This document shows, in pieces, positions 2,277 to 50,735 of a stretch of 64,000 bases of DNA (positions are counted from its first letter, which is position 1; every line of letters begins with the position of its first letter). A model generated the notes under the pieces. It saw nothing but the letters and a program-made list of their open reading frames with translations. It did not search any database and was not told where the DNA came from. The DNA is from a bacterium (lineage in GTDB: Bacteria > Patescibacteriota > Minisyncoccia > Phycocordibacterales > UBA2100): contig JAUSHX010000010.1 in NCBI GenBank assembly GCA_030648265.1, forward strand, positions 26,253 to 90,252. The letters are read 5' to 3'. The position numbers and the translations under genes are program-made.

Positions 2277-4145
2277 ATGGGAAAAATAATTGGCATTGAC
2301 TTGGGAACGACGAACTCCGCAGTCGCAGTGGTGCGAAGCGGGGAACCGGAAATCATAGAGAACGCAGAGGGCGCGCGGACAACGCCGTCGGTAGTCGCAA
2401 TTTCAAAGACGGGAGAAAAGCTCGTAGGGCTTTTGGCGCGCAGACAGGGAGTTACCAACCCTAAAAATACGGTATACCAAATAAAGCGCTTTATCGGGCA
2501 TTCTTTTGACGAAAAAGCTGTTGAGAAAGACCGCGCAGCAGTGCCTTTTGAAATCCGGAAATCAGATAACGGGGGAATTGAAGTTCACATGGGCGAGAAA
2601 TGGTTCCGTCCCGAAGAAATCTCGGCGATGATTTTGCAGAAACTGAAACAGGATGCCGAGGCAAAGCTCGGTGAAACAATTACTGAAGCTGTCATTACCG
2701 TGCCCGCATACTTTAACGATGCTCAACGACAGGCTACGCGCGATGCGGGGAAAATCGCAGGACTGGACGTGAAGCGCATCATCAATGAGCCAACCGCGGC
2801 GGCGCTTGCTTACGGATTTAATAAGAAAAAGAATGAGAAAATCGTTGTATTTGATTTCGGCGGTGGAACCTTTGATATCTCTGTTCTGGAGGTTGGTGAT
2901 GACGTCATTGAGGTGCGTTCAACGGACGGCGACAGCCATCTAGGCGGAAAAGATATTGACCAGAAGATAATGACATGGATTGCGGATGAATTTAAAAAGG
3001 AATCCGGTATTGACGTGCGCAATGACCCTCTCGCGCGCCAGCGCCTTGATGAAGCGGCGGAAAAGGCAAAGATTGAGCTTTCCACGGCCAAAGAAACCGA
3101 GGTAAATATCCCTTTCATTACGTCCGACTCATCCGGTCCGCGCCACCTGCTCGTGAAAATGACACGGGCAAAATTGGAGGACCTTTCCGGTGAATTTATC
3201 CAGCAGGCGATGACAATCACGAATCGGGCAATGGACGCGTCTCCATTTAAGATAGGGGATTTGAATGAAGTGATTCTTGTGGGAGGACAAACGCGCATGC
3301 CGGCGCTCCAAAAAGCCGTTGAAGATTTCTTCCATAAGAAACCCAACATGACGGTAAATCCGGACGAAGTGGTCGCCATCGGTGCAGCCATCCAAGGTGG
3401 AATCCTTCAGGGAGACGTCAAAGATGTTCTCCTTCTGGACGTTATCCCTCTATCAATGGGAATAGAAACATTGGGAGGCGTCGCCACAAAGATAATAGAA
3501 CGCAATACGACAATCCCCACGTCACGTTCGCAGGTATTTTCCACTGCATCCGACAACCAACCATCTGTGGAAATTCACATTGTGCAGGGAGAAAGACCGA
3601 TGGCGGGAGACAACAAATCACTAGGAAGGTTTAACCTAGACGGAATACCTCCGGCTCCGCGCGGAATGCCCCAGGTTGAGGTCAAGTTTGATATAGATGC
3701 AAATGGTATTTTGAGCGTTACCGCAAAAGATAAGACTTCCGGAAAAGAGCAGTCAATCCGCATTGAAGCGCGCTCCGGCCTCACGGATGCCGAGGTTGAG
3801 AAAATGCGCAAAGATGCCGATGTTAACGCCGATGCCGACAAACAAAAACGCGAGCTCGTGGAGGCGCAAAATGCCGCGGACCAGATTCAGTACGCCGCGG
3901 AAAAAGCGCTTAAAGAACATGGTGAAAAGGTGAGCGAAGACATCCGAAAAAATGTAGAGGAGAAGATAGTGGCGCTTAAGACAGCGCGCGCGGGTACGGA
4001 CACTACTGCAATCAAAACCGCGTCCGATGCGCTCGGAACGGCCATGAGCGCGATTGGGGAGGCAATGTCAAAAAATCCCCCGCCACAGGAACCCCCACAG
4101 GGCGGAGAGCAGAAGCCGCCGGAAGAAACTCCGCCTCAAAAATAA
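2277..4145 (+). CDS. dnaK: molecular chaperone DnaK (Hsp70)
   Basis: 622 aa; [22 protein letters not shown] and the Hsp70 substrate-binding domain are all present. Confidence 0.97.
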
Positions 4146-11506: not shown

Positions 11507-12240
11507 CGAGCAAATTCATCGTTGCGACCCAAAACTTCACCGGGCCGCTTGAGACCCTTTTTAATCTTATAGAAGAACGCCGGCTTTCTGTTTCCGACGT
11601 TTCTCTCGCAGAGGTGACCGACGCGTATCTTTCGTATGTGGAAAAACTTCCGTCGCTCCCCTTAGGCGAAACGGCGCAATTTGTTCTCGTTGCCTCAACA
11701 CTGCTCCTGATAAAGTCGCGCATGCTTCTGCCCTCGCTGGAGTTGTCCGAAGACGAGCGCGAGAGCGTGGAGGAACTTGAGCGGCGTCTTGCACGCTACG
11801 CCATTATTCGCAAATCCGCCAAACTCCTGCGTCGTGCGTGGGGCACGGCACCGCTCGTTTTCCCCAAACGCGCTCCGATGCCTGATCCTGTATTTTCTCC
11901 GGGGCAAATCGGTCTAACCTCTATTGTGCAGGCGATGATGCGTATGATAAACATATTGCCCAATGTCCTCCAATCCGCAAAAGTGCTTGTGTCTCCCGTT
12001 TTGGCCCTTGAAGAGGTCATTGTCCGGCTTGAGAAGCGACTGACGGGAGCCGTGCATGCCCGGTTCAGCGAATTGACACGGTCGGCCGACAGGCACGAGG
12101 TTATTGTATACTTCCTCGCAATGCTGGAACTGGTTCGCTCCGGTTCAATAAGCGCAACGCAGGAAAGGATTTTCAGCGACATCACGCTGGCGACCGAGTC
12201 GCTTATGGCGCCGAAATACGGCGCGGGGAGTAGCAGCTAG
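11503..12240 (+). CDS. scpA: segregation and condensation protein A
   Basis: ScpA N-terminal signature (LETLFNLIEERRL...DVSLAEVTDAYLSYV); followed by scpB. Confidence 0.85.
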   Translation: MTSKFIVATQNFTGPLETLFNLIEERRLSVSDVSLAEVTDAYLSYVEKLPSLPLGETAQFVLVASTLLLIKSRMLLPSLELSEDERESVEELERRLARYAIIRKSAKLLRRAWGTAPLVFPKRAPMPDPVFSPGQIGLTSIVQAMMRMINILPNVLQSAKVLVSPVLALEEVIVRLEKRLTGAVHARFSELTRSADRHEVIVYFLAMLELVRSGSISATQERIFSDITLATESLMAPKYGAGSSS

Positions 12241-12262
12241 CCACTAGGGTATAGCCACTAGC
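12233..12262 (+). repeat. intergenic repeat (family 2) between scpA and scpB
   Basis: GCTAGCCACTAGGGTATAGCCACTAGCAA: an exact copy of the atpF-atpH intergenic element. Confidence 0.7.
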
Positions 12263-25569: not shown

Positions 25570-26364
25570 TTACCAACACGGGGCGAGAGCGCCCCAGAGG
25601 CCTGCCGCATCTTTGAGCTCCGCGAGACGAAGTTCAGGAAGCTTCGGATAAGGCGAGGAAAAGCGCTTGAGCGCCGACGCGACATCGGCAAGCCGGTAGC
25701 CGTTGTCTTCGTTCATCATTCCGCCTCCGAGCACGAAGATTTCAGGCGACCAATGCAGTATCATATTGTAAATTCCCGCCGCGAGGACGGGCGTCATTTC
25801 CGCGTAGCCTTCGCGCGGCGCCTTGCTTGGGTGAACTCCGTAGCGCTTCTCAAAAGCTCGTCCGGAAACAAGTTCTTCCAATTCCCTGCCCTCTTTCGCA
25901 TCCACGATTTGGTGTCCCGCTTCAAAGTCGTAGACGCCGCCGTCTATGCGCCCATCAACGACGCGGCCGCATCCGATGCCGGTGCCGACGCCGGCATACG
26001 CAACGATGCGCGCGCCGCGGCCTGCGCCATACGCCGCCTCTCCGAGAGCCGCGAAATCTCCGTCGTTCAGCACTTCCGCAGGCGCCCCAAGCGCGTGCGT
26101 AAGCTCCTCGGTGAGCGCGACGCCCTTCCATTCCGGAAGGTTCGGCGCGTACTGTATAACGCCCTTGCCCATTACGCCCGGAAAACCGCCCGCCGCGGCC
26201 TCTATTCCTTCTGCGCCCGCGCACTCGCGCGCGAGATTTGCGAGCGCTTTAACTCCCTCTTTCGGATTTTTAGGAGTCGGTATCTTGCGCACTTCGCCCA
26301 ATCCATCCTCTAATGCGCGCGCCGCGCGCATTGAGGTACCGCCTATGTCAAATACGATTTTCAT
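25570..26364 (-). CDS. ROK-family sugar kinase (glucokinase-like)
   Basis: MKIVFDIGGTSMRAA and a GxGxG ATP-binding region of the ROK/actin-like ATPase fold. The start was chosen at the MKIVFDIGG Met. Confidence 0.7.
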   Translation of the reverse strand: MKIVFDIGGTSMRAARALEDGLGEVRKIPTPKNPKEGVKALANLARECAGAEGIEAAAGGFPGVMGKGVIQYAPNLPEWKGVALTEELTHALGAPAEVLNDGDFAALGEAAYGAGRGARIVAYAGVGTGIGCGRVVDGRIDGGVYDFEAGHQIVDAKEGRELEELVSGRAFEKRYGVHPSKAPREGYAEMTPVLAAGIYNMILHWSPEIFVLGGGMMNEDNGYRLADVASALKRFSSPYPKLPELRLAELKDAAGLWGALAPCW

Positions 26365-44985: not shown

Positions 44986-45231
44986 CTACAAAAGTACGAC
45001 GGCGCGATTGCCGGAGAATTCCAGAATTCCATTTTCTGTTTTAAACGTTTTCACTTCGTCATCCGGAAGCTTGACGGTGATTGAGCCCGTGCGAAGCGCT
45101 GTCACAAACGGCTCGTGATTGGCTAATACCGTGAGCTCGCCATCAGAACCGGGAAGAGTTGCGGAAACCGCCTTGCCGTCAAAATACGTCTCTCCGACGC
45201 TTGAAATTACAAGATGAAAAGTTTTTGACAT
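44986..45231 (-). CDS. atpC: ATP synthase F1 epsilon subunit (N-terminal beta-sandwich only)
   Basis: 81 aa; MSKTFHLVISSVGETYFDGKA...LTVLANHEPFVTAL matches the epsilon N-domain; lies downstream of atpD. Confidence 0.8.
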   Translation of the reverse strand: MSKTFHLVISSVGETYFDGKAVSATLPGSDGELTVLANHEPFVTALRTGSITVKLPDDEVKTFKTENGILEFSGNRAVVLL

Positions 45232-45283: not shown

Positions 45284-46729
<1,446 letters not shown>

Positions 46730-47131
46730 CTATTGCTTTATTTTCTTATATATAATCCACGCTACCCATAGATATGCGAGGTATGAGCCCACAAGGCCAA
46801 TATCACCTGCAGGTCCTGAAAAATCCGCTATTTCTGGAAAAAGATAAATCTGTATAACCGAGCCCAGACTGAGTACGGCCACCACATAAATTCCAAGGAA
46901 TAGGGTGACAGGGGTTTGTCCGATTTCCGGTATCACATTAGGAGTTACCTTATGAGTGCGCCGGGAGAAAATAAAGAAACCACACACTAAAATTGTAATT
47001 ACAAAAAGCTTTACGAGCGTTTGCCAGAAATCGCTAAGATTGGGGAATAAATCGGAAATGATAGCATTCCCAAAAAATGAAGCTAATAAAAATACACCAA
47101 AAAATATCCATGCCTTGTTGAGGTTGCTCAT
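46730..47131 (-). CDS. hypothetical small membrane protein (inserted in the atp operon)
   Basis: 133 aa with four hydrophobic helices; lies between the NUDIX gene and atpD. Confidence 0.4.
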   Translation of the reverse strand: MSNLNKAWIFFGVFLLASFFGNAIISDLFPNLSDFWQTLVKLFVITILVCGFFIFSRRTHKVTPNVIPEIGQTPVTLFLGIYVVAVLSLGSVIQIYLFPEIADFSGPAGDIGLVGSYLAYLWVAWIIYKKIKQ

Positions 47132-47541
47132 ACGTTGAAAGGATTATACCCGCTATCTACTAAATTTCTAGTGGAGATAAATAATGGTTGCGGAAGCGAA
47201 TCCCATCTTGACCATCTCCATTCTTCACATTTATCCGGCTCCAACACCTGCGGCTCGCCGGCTTTCCAATCTGCTTCATAAAACAGTGTCAGGTAATGCA
47301 TTCCCGAGTCTTTGGCAATGTCATTTGTAAAAGTTATAAAGCGCACGTTTTTGATCTCTATACCTGTTTCTTCCAGAATTTCGCGAATAGCGCATACCTC
47401 CAGCTCTTCATACATATCCAATTTACCGCCAGGAATAGCCCATGTCCCGGACATAAGACCACCTCTACGCTTTCCCATCAATACTTTCCCGTCTTTGCGA
47501 ACGCAAACTCCTATCCCAACTCCCGGTCGTGCTTGTTCCAT
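47128..47541 (-). CDS. NUDIX hydrolase
   Basis: Nudix box GGKLDMYEELEVCAIREILEETGIE. Confidence 0.8.
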   Translation of the reverse strand: MEQARPGVGIGVCVRKDGKVLMGKRRGGLMSGTWAIPGGKLDMYEELEVCAIREILEETGIEIKNVRFITFTNDIAKDSGMHYLTLFYEADWKAGEPQVLEPDKCEEWRWSRWDSLPQPLFISTRNLVDSGYNPFNV

Positions 47542-47584
47542 GTTTCTAGTCGCTATACCCTATTCGCTAATCGCTACCCCCTAC

Positions 47585-47647
47585 TTCATCGCCTCCATGC
47601 CGCTCGTAATTTCTGAAACTTCGCGCGTAATCGCCGCATGTGGATAG
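47585..47647 (-). pseudogene. diverged duplicate of the atpG 3' end (last approx. 18 codons)
   Basis: The minus-strand reading gives ...AAITREVSEITSGMEAMK*, identical in amino acids to the true atpG C-terminus (48133-48190). Nucleotide identity is roughly 85%, with the differences mostly at third positions. Confidence 0.7.
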
Positions 47648-47683
47648 TTCATTGACTTCTTATTGTACATTGATATCATGTGC

Positions 47684-48136
47684 TTACAAACGCCCTCGGG
47701 CCTCCCCGCTTCGGCGGGGTTTAAATTTCCTGATTCTGTCTGTCCCGTCAATAAGGCCTTTTATCTTCTCTTTCAGTTTTTGAAAATCTTTCTCCGGGCA
47801 AACTCCGATTTTGTATTTCATACGCTTAGCGTCAAAAAGCCGTATCTGTGAGAGTATCGCTATATTGCGTCTGCTATTGATGTCAGGAAGTTGGTGATAA
47901 TAGGGGCCTTTCTTTTCCGATCCCGTCATCGGTACTCCCCAAAACACTCGTGTATTGAATTTCTTAAATACGATTATCGGCCTCAAGAATTCGGTTCCTT
48001 TCCCGTCCTGTTCAAAGCCGACGTTTTTGCCCATTTTCAGGAACCATAATTCACGCTCTTTGAACCCGGGTATTTCTTCATTCGTATCTGCTTTCTTTTT
48101 CTGCTTATTCCAATCATCAAAAACATTCATACTCAC
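47684..48136 (-). CDS. MazF/PemK-family endoribonuclease toxin-like protein (no cognate antitoxin seen)
   Basis: RELWFLKMGKNVGFEQDGKGTEFLRPIIVF...VFWGVPMTGS...NIAILSQIRLFDAKRM aligns with the MazF/EndoA core ([25 protein letters not shown]...AITAQ...ILLEQIRTIDKQRL). The start overlaps the atpG stop by 4 nt. Confidence 0.6.
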   Translation of the reverse strand: MSMNVFDDWNKQKKKADTNEEIPGFKERELWFLKMGKNVGFEQDGKGTEFLRPIIVFKKFNTRVFWGVPMTGSEKKGPYYHQLPDINSRRNIAILSQIRLFDAKRMKYKIGVCPEKDFQKLKEKIKGLIDGTDRIRKFKPRRSGEARGRL

Positions 48137-49053
48137 TTCATCGCCTCCATGCCGCTCGTGATTTCGGAAACCTCGCGCGTGATGGCCGCCTGTCGCACCT
48201 TGTTGAACGTGCGCGTGTAGGTGCTTGCCATTTCGTTCGCCTTATCAGTCGCGCTTTTCATCGCAACCATGCGCGCGGAATGTTCAGAGGCCTTTGACTC
48301 AATGTGCGCGTGAAAAACGGCAATGTTGAGCAACTTCGGCAATAGAACCCGCAAAACGTTGTCTGCATCCGGCTCTATCGTGTACACGCTCGGAACAGCC
48401 ACCTTCTCATCAACAGGTATGGGTGAATACTTGCCCTTTGCGGGCCTGATGCGCGCGACCATAAGCGCGAACATTTCAGGATTAATCGGAACTATCGGGC
48501 GGACAACCGGCTCCTGTTCAAAGGTAGATATAAAATTTGTGTATACGACAATACAGGACGAAACTTCTCCATCCTCATGCCACTCCAGAACCTTGTCGGT
48601 AACCATCCGCATTTCTTCTTCGGAAACGCCATCGGCTACGTTCTCAAACTTCAATTTCACCTCATAACCGCGTGAGGCGAAATATTCCCCTCCGCGACGC
48701 CCTGCAGCGATAACCACTACATCTCCTTTATTGAGGTTTAACCTCAATATTTCGGCTTCAGCCTTGCGTATTACGGCGCTGTTCAAAGAGCCCGCAAGTC
48801 CTTTGTCGCTGGTGATTATGACAAAACATGTTTTGCCGGGTTTCGTCTGTAATAGCGCGTGGCGCTTTACATCCGAGGTGCCCGATAAACGCTGCAAAAT
48901 TGAAAGCGAGGTGGCCGCGTAAGCGCGACCGGACAGTGCACGTTCCTGTGCTTTGCGCATCTTCACGGCGGAAACCGCCTGCATCGCCTTAGTTACCGTG
49001 CCAGTTTTCTTGTACGAGTGGATTTTAACCTTGAGACTCTTTAGAGAGGCCAT
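48133..49053 (-). CDS. atpG: ATP synthase F1 gamma subunit
   Basis: 306 aa; conserved N- and C-terminal helices (C-terminus RQAAITREVSEITSGMEAMK). Confidence 0.93.
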   Translation of the reverse strand: MASLKSLKVKIHSYKKTGTVTKAMQAVSAVKMRKAQERALSGRAYAATSLSILQRLSGTSDVKRHALLQTKPGKTCFVIITSDKGLAGSLNSAVIRKAEAEILRLNLNKGDVVVIAAGRRGGEYFASRGYEVKLKFENVADGVSEEEMRMVTDKVLEWHEDGEVSSCIVVYTNFISTFEQEPVVRPIVPINPEMFALMVARIRPAKGKYSPIPVDEKVAVPSVYTIEPDADNVLRVLLPKLLNIAVFHAHIESKASEHSARMVAMKSATDKANEMASTYTRTFNKVRQAAITREVSEITSGMEAMK

Positions 49054-49148
49054 AAAAATAGCTAGTGGCTTGTAGCTTGCAGCTTGTAGCCACTCAAAAA
49101 CAATTCTCTTTTAACAACGATGTGCGTGGTATTTCGCATGGCTACAGG
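49054..49148 (-). repeat. intergenic repeat (family 2 variant) between atpA and atpG
   Basis: CTAGTGGCTTGTAGCTTGCAGCTTGTAGCCACTC ... GGCTACAGGCTACTTGCTACTGGCTACGGGC: GCTAC/GTAGC-rich, with CCACTAGCTATTTTT-ATG immediately before atpG (minus-strand reading). Confidence 0.5.
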
Positions 49149-50735
49149 CTACTTGCTACTGGCTACGGGCTGGGAGCCAAATAGCTCCCCGTGTGCCAGC
49201 CGGAACTCCTCAAGCGCGCGGTCCAGTTTCTTTTTCAGAGCTTCGGACATGACGCCAGACTTCCTTATTTCAGCAAGCTCTTTTGCATATTGACCATCTA
49301 CGAATTCAAGCAAAAGCGCCTCAACTTCGCTGACGCGCGTAATCGCGACGTCCGCAAAAAATTTCTTATCAGCAGCGTATAAAACGGCAACCTGCTTTTC
49401 AACAGAAATCGGCGAGCCGTTTCTCTGCTTCAGAATTTCAACCATTCTTCTGCCCGATTCAATTCTATCGGCAGTCATCTTGTCCAAGTCCTGCGCGAAT
49501 TGCATAAATGCTTCTAATTCTCGGAATTGCGCGAGAACCAGGCGCAAAGTGCCAGCCACTGACTTCATCGCTTTGGTCTGCGCGGCTGAACCCACGCGGG
49601 AAACGGAAATACCGACATCAATCGCAGGACGTACTCCTTTGTTGAACAGAGATGAGTCTAAGAATATCTGGCCGTCCGTAATTGAAATAACGTTAGTCGG
49701 AATGTATGTAGCAACATCGCCATCCTGTGTTTCAATAATAGGCAATGCGGTAAGGGAACCGCCGCCTTTTTCTTCGCTTAAACAAGCCGAGCGTTCAAGC
49801 AAGCGGGAGTGTAAATAGAAAATGTCGCCTGGATACGCCTCGCGTCCCGGCGGACGGCGCAAGAGCAAGGAAAGTTGGCGATACGCTGTCGCCTGTTTGG
49901 AAAGGTCGTCGTAAATCACGAGTACGTCTTGCCCGCGGTCCATGAAATATTCGCCCATGGCCACTCCCGCATACGGCGCCAAGAATTGCAGAGCCGCCGG
50001 CGTAGATGCCGGAGCGTCAACGATTATCGTATACGGCATCGCCCCCGCTTCCGTGAGCTGTTGAGCGATGCGCGCAGTTTTTGATTCCTTCTGACCGATA
50101 GCAACATAAATACAAATCGGCCGTTTCTCTGCCGGCTCGTTCTTCTGGTTGATTATCGTATCAATCGCAATCGTCGTCTTTCCCGTGGAGCGGTCGCCGA
50201 TGATGAGCTCGCGCTGTCCGCGCCCGATCGGAATCATGGAATCAATCGCTTTGATACCGGTCTGGAGCGGGACGGACACTGATTTTCTGTCTATGACTCC
50301 GTATGATTCCCGTTCAACGGGCATCATGGTCGCTTTTGTGAAAGGCCCTTTGCCGTCCAGCGGCTCGCCCAAGGCACTCACAACCCTGCCCAAAAGTTCG
50401 TCGCCGGAGGGAACTGAAAGAATCCTGCCGGTTGATTTGACTGTCATTCCTTCGTTCACTCGCGCGGAGTCGCCCAAAATCGTCGCCCGCACGCCATCCT
50501 CCTCCAAGTTGAGAACGAGACCGTGGAGAGCGCCGGCCGCTTCCATTCCCTTGGAAAGCGGCCTCCCCGCGGTTTCTTCAAACTGGATGATTTCACCCAT
50601 GACCGCGCGGGAAAGTCCGTCAATCGCAACAACACCGTCGCCGACAGACGTCACGCGCCCGACATGCTCCACACCCGCTTTCGGCGTATAGTGTTCAATT
50701 TCGTTTATTATCTTTTGTACGATTGATTGGTCCAT
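49149..50735 (-). CDS. atpA: ATP synthase F1 alpha subunit
   Basis: P-loop [13 protein letters not shown]. Preceded by the leader module. Confidence 0.97.

Follow-up and report, generated by a model that had tools for sequence, protein, structure and literature searches.

Within the 64,000-nucleotide (nt) stretch of DNA analysed here (the window; positions 26,253 to 90,252 of contig JAUSHX010000010.1, assembly GCA_030648265.1, from a bacterium of the Patescibacteriota, or Candidate Phyla Radiation (CPR)), the minus-strand ATP synthase operon carries a gene for a MazF/PemK-like endoribonuclease directly behind atpG, followed by a second copy of the atpG tail that we refer to as the relic. The open reading frame (ORF) list and Pfam confirm the gene order given by an earlier sequence-only reading of this DNA, namely atpG (48133-49053; F1 gamma subunit, intact, PF00231, E = 3e-80), the toxin-like gene (47684-48136; 150 amino acids (aa), PF02452), a NUDIX hydrolase gene (47128-47541; PF00293, E = 5e-22), a gene for a 133-aa membrane protein with no Pfam match (46730-47131) and atpD (45284-46726), with atpA (49149-50735) before and atpC (44986-45231) after them. 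The same arrangement of atpG, PemK gene and relic occurs in an independent assembly (L005; comparison loci are designated by L numbers throughout), and it is therefore not an assembly artefact. In outline, atpG is intact, a promoter-less gene of the MazF fold follows its stop codon, a conserved, structured RNA gene with its own promoter is predicted on the opposite strand, and the insertion is recent and accompanied by a 59-nt duplication. The explanation that we regard as probable is that a promoter-less cassette, composed of a toxin gene and an antisense-RNA gene and belonging to a CPR-wide family, was inserted at the 3' end of atpG in this Candidatus Kaiserbacteria genome together with a target duplication of 59 nt.

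The duplication is a direct repeat (D1) whose copy A is formed by the last 59 nt of atpG (48135-48193) and whose copy B (47583-47641) lies within the relic (47581-47641, minus strand), the two being 90% identical at a spacing of 552 nt, so that the second atpG tail reported earlier near the toxin gene is real. Read in frame (47640-47581), the relic encodes HAAITREVSEITSGMEAMK and ends in TAG, while atpG itself ends in QAAITREVSEITSGMEAMK and TGA. The differences between the repeat copies are G/T, C/G, C/T, G/A, C/A and C/T. All six in-frame differences fall at third codon positions; five are synonymous and one exchanges Q for H. The small ORF that contains the relic likewise exists, at a length of 32 codons from the ATG at 47679 rather than 31. 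At the other end of the toxin gene, the overlap with the atpG stop codon is present as described, although it reads GTGA (GTG start at 48136) and not ATGA; the start codon that homologues also have is the ATG at 48130, 2 nt downstream of the atpG TGA. The Shine-Dalgarno sequence found in homologues is deleted from the window cassette, which suggests that toxin translation proceeds by termination and reinitiation.

Five Kaiserbacteria genomes whose atpG is 88-94% identical (loci L146/147, L148, L149/150 and L151) reveal what was added. Their gene order is atpG-NUDIX-atpD-atpC; in each of the six loci from these relatives NUDIX separates atpG from atpD, and L148 also has an ORF of the same size as the 133-aa membrane protein gene at the same place. 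None of the loci L146-L151 contains a PemK gene or a second atpG tail. Since NUDIX and the membrane protein gene are found in relatives that have no PemK, we treat both as residents of the operon, and the earlier proposal that the entire block 47128-48136 had been inserted is rejected. In alignment A7 the native tail of these relatives, together with the spacer and NUDIX behind it, is collinear with the window's relic, the TAGCGA-rich spacer and the start of NUDIX, and the relic therefore occupies the original position of the atpG tail. The addition is 552 nt, consisting of a cassette of 491 nt (47642-48132, minus strand), delimited by its absence from L146-L151 and by composition, plus one 59-nt tail copy. 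The cassette comprises the toxin gene, the antisense-RNA gene and the promoter of the latter, and its GC content is 42-46%, as compared to about 51% in atpG (composition profile). The 491-nt insert contains nothing beyond the PemK ORF and the RNA module, and thus no transposase, integrase or other mobility gene. The comparison of the atpG-atpD junction, with cassette and relic absent and a single tail in all five genomes, thus bears out the earlier view of the duplicated tail as the footprint of an insertion. Judged from pairwise atpG identities alone (94% for window-L146, 91% for window-L148 and 97% for L149-L151), the simplest reading suggested is one gain on the window lineage, the other being about three precise losses.

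The assignment of the 150-aa product to the MazF/PemK family, proposed before any database search, is supported along several lines. It matches Pfam PF02452 (PemK_toxin) over residues 43-126 with 28.4 bits, above the gathering cut-off of 23.1 (E = 2e-6), and a PDB search with a profile of 19 homologues recovers, over the whole domain, EndoA/YdcE of B. subtilis (7e-5), PemK/MoxT of B. anthracis (1.5e-4) and MazF (2e-3; S. aureus and E. coli). The AlphaFold2 model, based on 87 homologues, has a mean predicted local distance difference test (pLDDT) score of 83 and a predicted template modelling (pTM) score of 0.74, and the top 50 Foldseek matches in the PDB are all MazF, PemK, MoxT or YdcE structures (probability 1.0; TM-scores of 0.62-0.79, normalised to target length), which places the fold inside the MazF/PemK/Kid group. 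Among the 87 homologues R52 is invariant and T71 nearly so, and both align with an Arg and a Thr of B. subtilis EndoA, positions that we take to be the catalytic Arg and Thr of the MazF RNase site. The C-terminal 20 or so residues (ending in KPRRSGEARGRL) have a pLDDT of only 50-60 and are an extension confined to a subgroup of about 150 aa (P0001-P0008), most family members being 127-135 aa long. In this subgroup the toxin ORF lacks the usual stop codon, and its last 20 or so codons read through the hairpins of the antisense-RNA gene, which explains the disordered tail.

Consistent with the earlier remark that no MazE/PemI-like ORF is visible, none fits in the cassette. There is no conserved ORF on either side of the toxin gene, and the search for a small antitoxin ORF beside it in the window returned only the atpG relic. 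An adjacent antitoxin-sized ORF is missing from every one of 124 family loci, and because the median gaps to the neighbouring genes are only 73 nt upstream (101 loci) and 105 nt downstream (116 loci), there is no room for a protein antitoxin. The PADLOC defence models did not match the toxin.

What accompanies the toxin gene instead was examined in a family sample of 133 loci obtained by family search, plus loci from exact-protein look-ups, in which the DNA after the toxin stop codon was compared. The hosts are Paceibacteria, Nomurabacteria, Kaiserbacteria, Gracilibacteria and other CPR, as well as some Campylobacterota. Nearly all family loci share a non-coding module at this position that, on the toxin strand, is composed of a hairpin that spans the stop codon between A- and T-runs, a second, GC-rich hairpin whose sequence varies, GGGCCGAAGCC with TTTGTA behind it, and lastly a segment with TATAGCA and, some 20 nt further on, GTCAA. 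On the opposite strand this last segment reads as TTGAC(A/T), followed after a spacer of 16-18 nt by (TG)nTATAnT, i.e. a sigma-70 promoter facing the 3' end of the toxin gene. Such a promoter is found in antisense orientation in 81 of 111 distinct loci; the sense strand has it in 2 of 111, shuffled sequence yields 6, and a separate count (80/110 versus 2/110) gives a Fisher p of 1e-31. The TG of an extended -10 element is present in 42 of 82 antisense promoters, and spacers are mostly 16-18 nt. Upstream of the toxin gene, on the other hand, a sense promoter of like quality exists in only 3 of 110 loci, and for this reason we describe the toxin as promoter-less.

The RNA predicted to start from this promoter was captured in a covariance model (R1) of 20 sequences, built from the 130-aa type with a structure supplied by hand, which matches about 95 loci, in every case antisense to PemK and across its stop codon. 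In the R1 alignment 97.3% of cells pair, 20 of 20 pairs show compensatory change, and double-sided changes amount to 459 cells, where shuffling gives 101 and sliding the partners no more than 91, although all these counts were taken from a model-fitted alignment and lean toward structure. Compensatory stems are visible in the raw sequences as well. Applied to the raw MAFFT alignment, RNAalifold recovers the terminator hairpin only, the other two helices having needed the hand-given structure and realignment to the covariance model. G-U pairs number 92 as against 13 A-C, and UUCG loops occur in 77 of 112 cases and GNRA loops (GCAA, GAAA or GUAA) in 60 of 112; because G-U pairs and UUCG or GNRA loops exist in one orientation only, the RNA is assigned to the antisense strand. 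The typical family RNA, with a conserved 5' part of UACAAAUGG, is predicted to form three hairpins ending in a U-run, at -38 kcal/mol (z = -6.3). At the RNA position cmscan found no match to any Rfam 15 family (the window at E <= 10, L109 at E <= 1 and 20 loci at the gathering score), and the CPR RNA therefore differs from the Rfam 'pemK RNA' motif, to which it is alike in being a structured RNA associated with pemK genes. We also considered an RNA-guided element of the IS110 or omega-RNA kind and rejected it, as the RNA consists solely of closed tetraloop hairpins joined by low-complexity linkers and lacks a variable unpaired segment.

In the window itself, the promoter aimed antisense into the toxin gene (47652-47679, plus strand; TTGACT, a 16-nt spacer and TG-TATCAT) is the best match in 2.8 kb, agrees with the consensus at 10 of 12 positions and has the TG of an extended -10. 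The predicted small RNA (47686-47730, plus strand), for which we rely on the fold, a terminator-like scan flag and the covariation in the family, would contain hairpin 1 (GCC-CUCG-GGC, 47692-47701) and hairpin 2 (CCCCGC-UUCG-GCGGGG, 47704-47719) followed by UUUAAAUUU; the scan flag falls on this second hairpin and its U-run, and the RNA would be fully complementary to the 3' end of the toxin mRNA. The case for it would draw on the family as a whole and on the promoter and hairpins that appear conserved in the 150-aa subgroup, of which L001, L012, L015 and L017 pass the R1 threshold. The presence of an RNA gene here would also account for the unusually high DNA conservation that the window shares with L001 in the last part of the toxin gene, and the conserved 'spacer' in front of the relic is explained in the same way, being the predicted antisense promoter.

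Upstream and downstream flanks of each family member were compared by blastn, with a stricter window and repeats of at least 40 nt for the control test. Flanking direct repeats surround 15 of 116 distinct PemK members, compared to 2 of 166 control ORFs from the same loci (Fisher p = 5e-5), which argues that the window repeat is not due to chance. The repeats are gene ends, bounded on one side by a start or a stop codon, the majority measuring 56-72 nt. The upstream gene has its tail duplicated in the window, L001 and L008 (atpG in each) and in L139 (another gene), while heads of the downstream gene are duplicated in L012 (101 nt), L017 and L101 (atpG), L110 (an ftsX-like gene), L082 (dnaJ) and L076, L140 and L046 (other genes); the apparent repeats in L030 and L085 reflect tandem cassettes. 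A protein-level search for older relics added almost nothing to the cases found at the DNA level. One of the two repeat-flanked control ORFs is a PIN/VapC toxin gene (L008 3215-3616; Pfam PIN, E = 1e-15; also in L009 and L010), so that in these genomes the duplication of gene ends is not restricted to PemK cassettes. The 68-nt repeat around this gene has copies at 2940-3007 and 3633-3700 that are 90% identical, the downstream one being the 3' end of a minus-strand gene, and in L010 the PIN/VapC gene is preceded by a 55-aa partner ORF.

In young pairs, the differences between gene ends and their duplicates fall almost entirely at third codon positions: counted by first, second and third position, they are 0, 0 and 6 in the window, 0, 0 and 2 in L001, 0, 0 and 7 in L008, 0, 0 and 11 in L012 (26 of 26 at the third position has p = 4e-13 under a uniform expectation) and 1, 0 and 6 in L110. 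The pattern from which coding constraint on the retained copy had been deduced is thus real, but it recurs in duplicated gene heads elsewhere, and since head relics would encode unrelated truncated peptides, selection on a relic peptide need not be invoked. A better explanation is that the two copies are alleles of functional genes, or that conversion has acted on them. Either the copies diverged as functional genes in different genomes and the cassette recombined in with a piece of the donor gene, or bidirectional gene conversion places the relic under the selection that acts on the gene. Both tail copies in the window resemble alleles of relatives, at different sites, so that neither stands out as the foreign one, and each relic (window, L001 and L008) is closest to the tail in its own genome. 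A diversity-generating retroelement was rejected as the source of the differences, since the substitutions in the repeat are not adenine-specific and no ORF of reverse transcriptase size is nearby, the ORFs there being atp, NUDIX and YchF genes.

Across the family, the genes adjoining the cassette belong to about 160 families, and about 81% of these neighbours point the same way as the toxin gene. Cassettes are less diverged than their hosts in two comparisons: PemK is 85% identical between L001 and L008 where atpG is 72% identical, and 66% between L101 and L108 where atpG is 44% identical. Carriage by phages was considered and rejected, no family member having been found among 2.9 million viral contigs. 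Additional antisense-RNA modules occur away from PemK genes of the query type (L085 3732-3829(-), L128 1508-1604(-), L136 2307-2373(-) and L030 358-428), and PemK-like paralogues adjoin PemK in L085, L139, L034 and L119, from which it follows that cassettes occur in tandem. One member resides in a cultured CPR bacterium, Minisyncoccus archaeiphilus PMX.108 (NZ_AP038758.1, at about 965.2-965.7 kb; L103 3992-4439), with a 57.5-bit match to the RNA model. In Campylobacterota (L121 2970-4448 in Sulfurimonas indica NW8N, and L094, L102, L106 and L124), ORFs of 443-492 aa join the PemK domain (residues 40-127) in frame to an NAD-dependent epimerase/dehydratase; it would seem that a cassette placed at the head of a sugar-nucleotide gene no longer has its stop codon. 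In the Paceibacterota locus L001 (5450-6650), which has the same succession of atpG, PemK and relic, the operon ends after the relic and is followed by a 48-aa ORF and by dprA on the opposite strand, atpD and atpC not being adjacent.

These observations lend themselves to the following model. The toxin gene would be transcribed by read-through from the atp operon and translated beside the atpG stop codon via translational coupling, while the antisense RNA, produced from its own sigma-70 promoter, would lower toxin expression through duplex-dependent degradation or transcriptional interference, in the manner of the B. subtilis type I systems with 3' overlap, and so serve as an RNA antitoxin in place of MazE. 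Insertion would duplicate 59 nt of the target, leaving atpG whole and the original tail downstream as a relic, and the duplicated gene end could act as a portable right-hand homology arm that permits entry into a naive genome by homologous recombination whatever lies downstream; toxin addiction could keep the cassette from being lost through the direct repeats that flank it. In its widest form, which we offer tentatively as a possibility, the model describes a new toxin-antitoxin architecture in which a MazF-fold RNase is neutralised by a structured, cis-encoded, 3'-overlapping antisense RNA instead of MazE, on a promoter-less cassette of about 0.5 kb that borrows the expression signals of housekeeping genes (atpG most often) and spreads in CPR and some Campylobacterota by recombination, with the duplicated end as homology arm. 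A cassette family of this kind, with a MazF-like toxin and an antisense small RNA inserting at gene ends, appears to be undescribed. Each component (MazF toxins, antisense RNA antitoxins, long target duplication) is known, and it is the combination that is new.

Several points weigh against this account. The RNA predicted for the window folds at -18 kcal/mol with a z-score of -1.6, which is unremarkable on its own, and the window copy falls short of R1 at E <= 0.01; the covariation counts, as noted, are biased toward the structure. Duplications are seen around only about 13% of the cassettes. Like the toxicity and RNase activity of the ORF, which are presumed from its family and modelled fold, the antisense RNA and its promoter are predicted, from sequence, and so is the action of this RNA on the toxin; a trans-encoded protein antitoxin may be present elsewhere in the genome. 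A rival view is that the gene is an orphan type II toxin whose MazE/PemI partner was lost or lies elsewhere, the hairpins being a mere terminator or 3' untranslated region and the antisense promoter non-functional. Membership of the PemK family by Pfam and fold agrees with it, as does the resemblance of the hairpin over the stop codon (hairpin 0), with its flanking A- and U-runs, to a bidirectional terminator. A terminator, however, leaves unexplained why TTGACN, 16-18 nt and TG-TATAnT should stand on the opposite strand in so many loci and on the sense strand in almost none, and why two further covarying hairpins should have UUCG or GNRA loops and G-U pairs on the antisense strand only; it would also be surprising for an antitoxin-sized neighbour to be missing from all 124 loci in very different genomes. 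We therefore consider an orphan toxin unlikely. A partner might alternatively be sought in the relic, if its peptide were translated and mimicked the C-terminal helix of the gamma subunit, as an antitoxin or as a modulator of ATP synthase, with selection producing the synonymous differences. Tail relics in three lineages do keep their amino acids (6, 2 and 7 differences, all at third positions), and an ATG (at 47679, or within the -35 region) with an open frame is retained in the window and in L001. This idea is nonetheless highly improbable, given that the duplicated atpG head of L012 (11 of 11 differences at the third position, 30 codons identical) and the L110 head show the same pattern with different peptides, that L008 has two stop codons before its relic and only an ATG inside the -35 box left, that the segment upstream of the tail changes non-synonymously, and that about 87% of cassettes have no relic.

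The remaining alternatives concern the history of the cassette and its address in the operon. It had been suggested that a toxin co-translated with the F1Fo genes could couple growth arrest to the energy state of the cell; in its fuller form, the RNase would be a domesticated regulator of ATP synthase that tunes atp mRNA or links arrest to energy. Indeed, 10 of 124 distinct loci lie in an atp operon, all adjoining atpG on one side or the other, atpG is the most frequent neighbour and forms the largest neighbour cluster, and related cassettes in the very distant hosts L101 and L108 are both near atpG; if 2% is taken as the expectation, a rough binomial test yields p = 2e-4, on a sample that is biased to relatives of the query. 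Against this, more than 90% of members are in unrelated contexts (ftsW-murG, dnaJ, the ftsX-like gene and GAPDH among them), the five closest relatives have no cassette, and the gene is bracketed by an insertion scar and lower in GC. Because the sample is enriched for query relatives and the closest relatives are without the cassette, the link to energy is unproven, and with some 160 gene contexts in the family it is speculation even though atpG is the commonest neighbour; we judge domestication to be quite improbable. The other alternative is vertical descent, in which a common ancestor of the window, L001 and L008 lineages acquired the element a single time, after which it was lost repeatedly through its repeats while gene conversion kept the tails alike. 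All three lineages have the same junction codon, window-L001 identity is similar for PemK (66%) and atpG (69%), each relic most resembles the tail of its own genome, and 59-nt direct repeats would ease precise loss, all of which is in its favour. Vertical descent would however require the three or so independent losses among the closest relatives that the pairwise atpG identities imply, does not fit the higher identity of PemK (85%) than of atpG (72%) between L001 and L008, and predicts that differences arising after conversion should not all be at third positions, unless selection acts through conversion. We regard it as doubtful, and favour the insertion of a cassette consisting of toxin and antisense-RNA genes.

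Other classes of inserted element were considered for this cassette and rejected. A self-splicing intron or homing endonuclease does not agree with a complete atpG that has kept its stop codon, with the lack of any intron-type RNA in the Rfam scan, or with the RNase fold of the protein. For an integron cassette or site-specific integration, there is no integrase and the repeats are locus-specific and host-derived, although no search was aimed at attC. With regard to the neighbouring genes, NUDIX, whose position between atpG and atpD is conserved throughout this Kaiserbacteria clade, matches the PADLOC candidate defence model PDC-S07 (E = 9e-14), and the 133-aa membrane protein has a weak match to 'CARF, 2 TMs' (E = 1e-5). 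Three spacers in the window (49141-49165(-), 47545-47580(-) and 12231-12262(+)) are composed of GTAGC/TAGCGA-type repeats, with a TAGC density of 4 per about 30 nt compared to an expected 0.2 or so per 45 nt; the one between relic and NUDIX is conserved in relatives (alignment A7), and the atpA-atpG spacer also forms a 40-nt imperfect inverted repeat (49060-49171). Between atpA and atpG, L146 (3626-3997) and L148 (3630-3998) contain a 122-123-aa ORF with no Pfam match that is lacking in the window and L149, marking another variable slot in the operon.

MazF toxins are the textbook case of type II systems, with a protein antitoxin. The window protein resembles the type II toxins MazF, PemK, Kid and EndoA in sequence family, fold, the Arg/Thr pair and its nature as a small single-domain protein, but it has an extra N-terminal helix, its subgroup has the disordered 20-residue tail derived from the RNA gene, and its family is without an upstream MazE/PemI gene or room for one and without a promoter of its own; the CPR-wide subfamily is separate from the solved MazFs, to which it is 15-24% identical. 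In the type I systems txpA/RatA and bsrG/SR4 of B. subtilis, convergent antisense RNAs overlap the 3' end of the toxin transcript. The cassette is predicted to share this convergent small RNA gene with its own promoter and 3' overlap of the toxin mRNA, but its toxin is a soluble MazF-fold protein of about 130-150 aa, and of 148-150 aa in the window, and not a small hydrophobic peptide, and its RNA has a conserved three-hairpin architecture of its own. With type III systems (ToxIN, CptIN and TenpIN), in which ToxN is structurally related to MazF and Kid, it would have in common an RNase toxin under the control of RNA rather than protein. It differs in that its RNA is antisense and downstream, and in that the protein belongs to PF02452 and not to ToxN/AbiQ and has no PADLOC match; tandem or short-period repeats of a type III array are not found upstream of the toxin, where the sequence is that of atpG.

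As for the mode of insertion, Nobusato et al. in 2000 reportedly described insertion with long target duplication for restriction-modification gene units. Such units, as described by Kobayashi's group, are flanked by repeats of more than 30 bp that are single-copy at the empty site of a related genome (Furuta et al. 2010, PMC2853133). They carry no mobility genes, their repeats often overlap the 3' end of a gene, and they are found mostly in naturally competent bacteria, the mechanism being unknown (PMC2853133). The window insertion is alike in its 59-nt repeat, in the single copy at the empty site of relatives and in the absence of a mobility gene. It differs in cargo, which is a 0.5-kb cassette of toxin and small RNA instead of a restriction-modification unit, in its CPR hosts, and in that the duplications of the family are consistently bounded by a start or stop codon.

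These findings bear on annotation as well as on biology. Small ORFs beside these toxins would be read as gene-end relics and not as antitoxins, and the 20-residue C-terminal extension of the 150-aa subgroup as a by-product of read-through into the RNA gene. Long target duplication would be extended from restriction-modification units to toxin cassettes, and the family offers many natural cases, of gene heads as well as tails and of different ages, for working out the mechanism of insertion. If our account is true, a MazF subfamily that has an antisense RNA gene in place of MazE would blur the boundaries between type I, II and III systems, and it would provide a new RNA family for the CPR/Patescibacteria, a group in which, to our knowledge, almost no regulatory RNAs are known.

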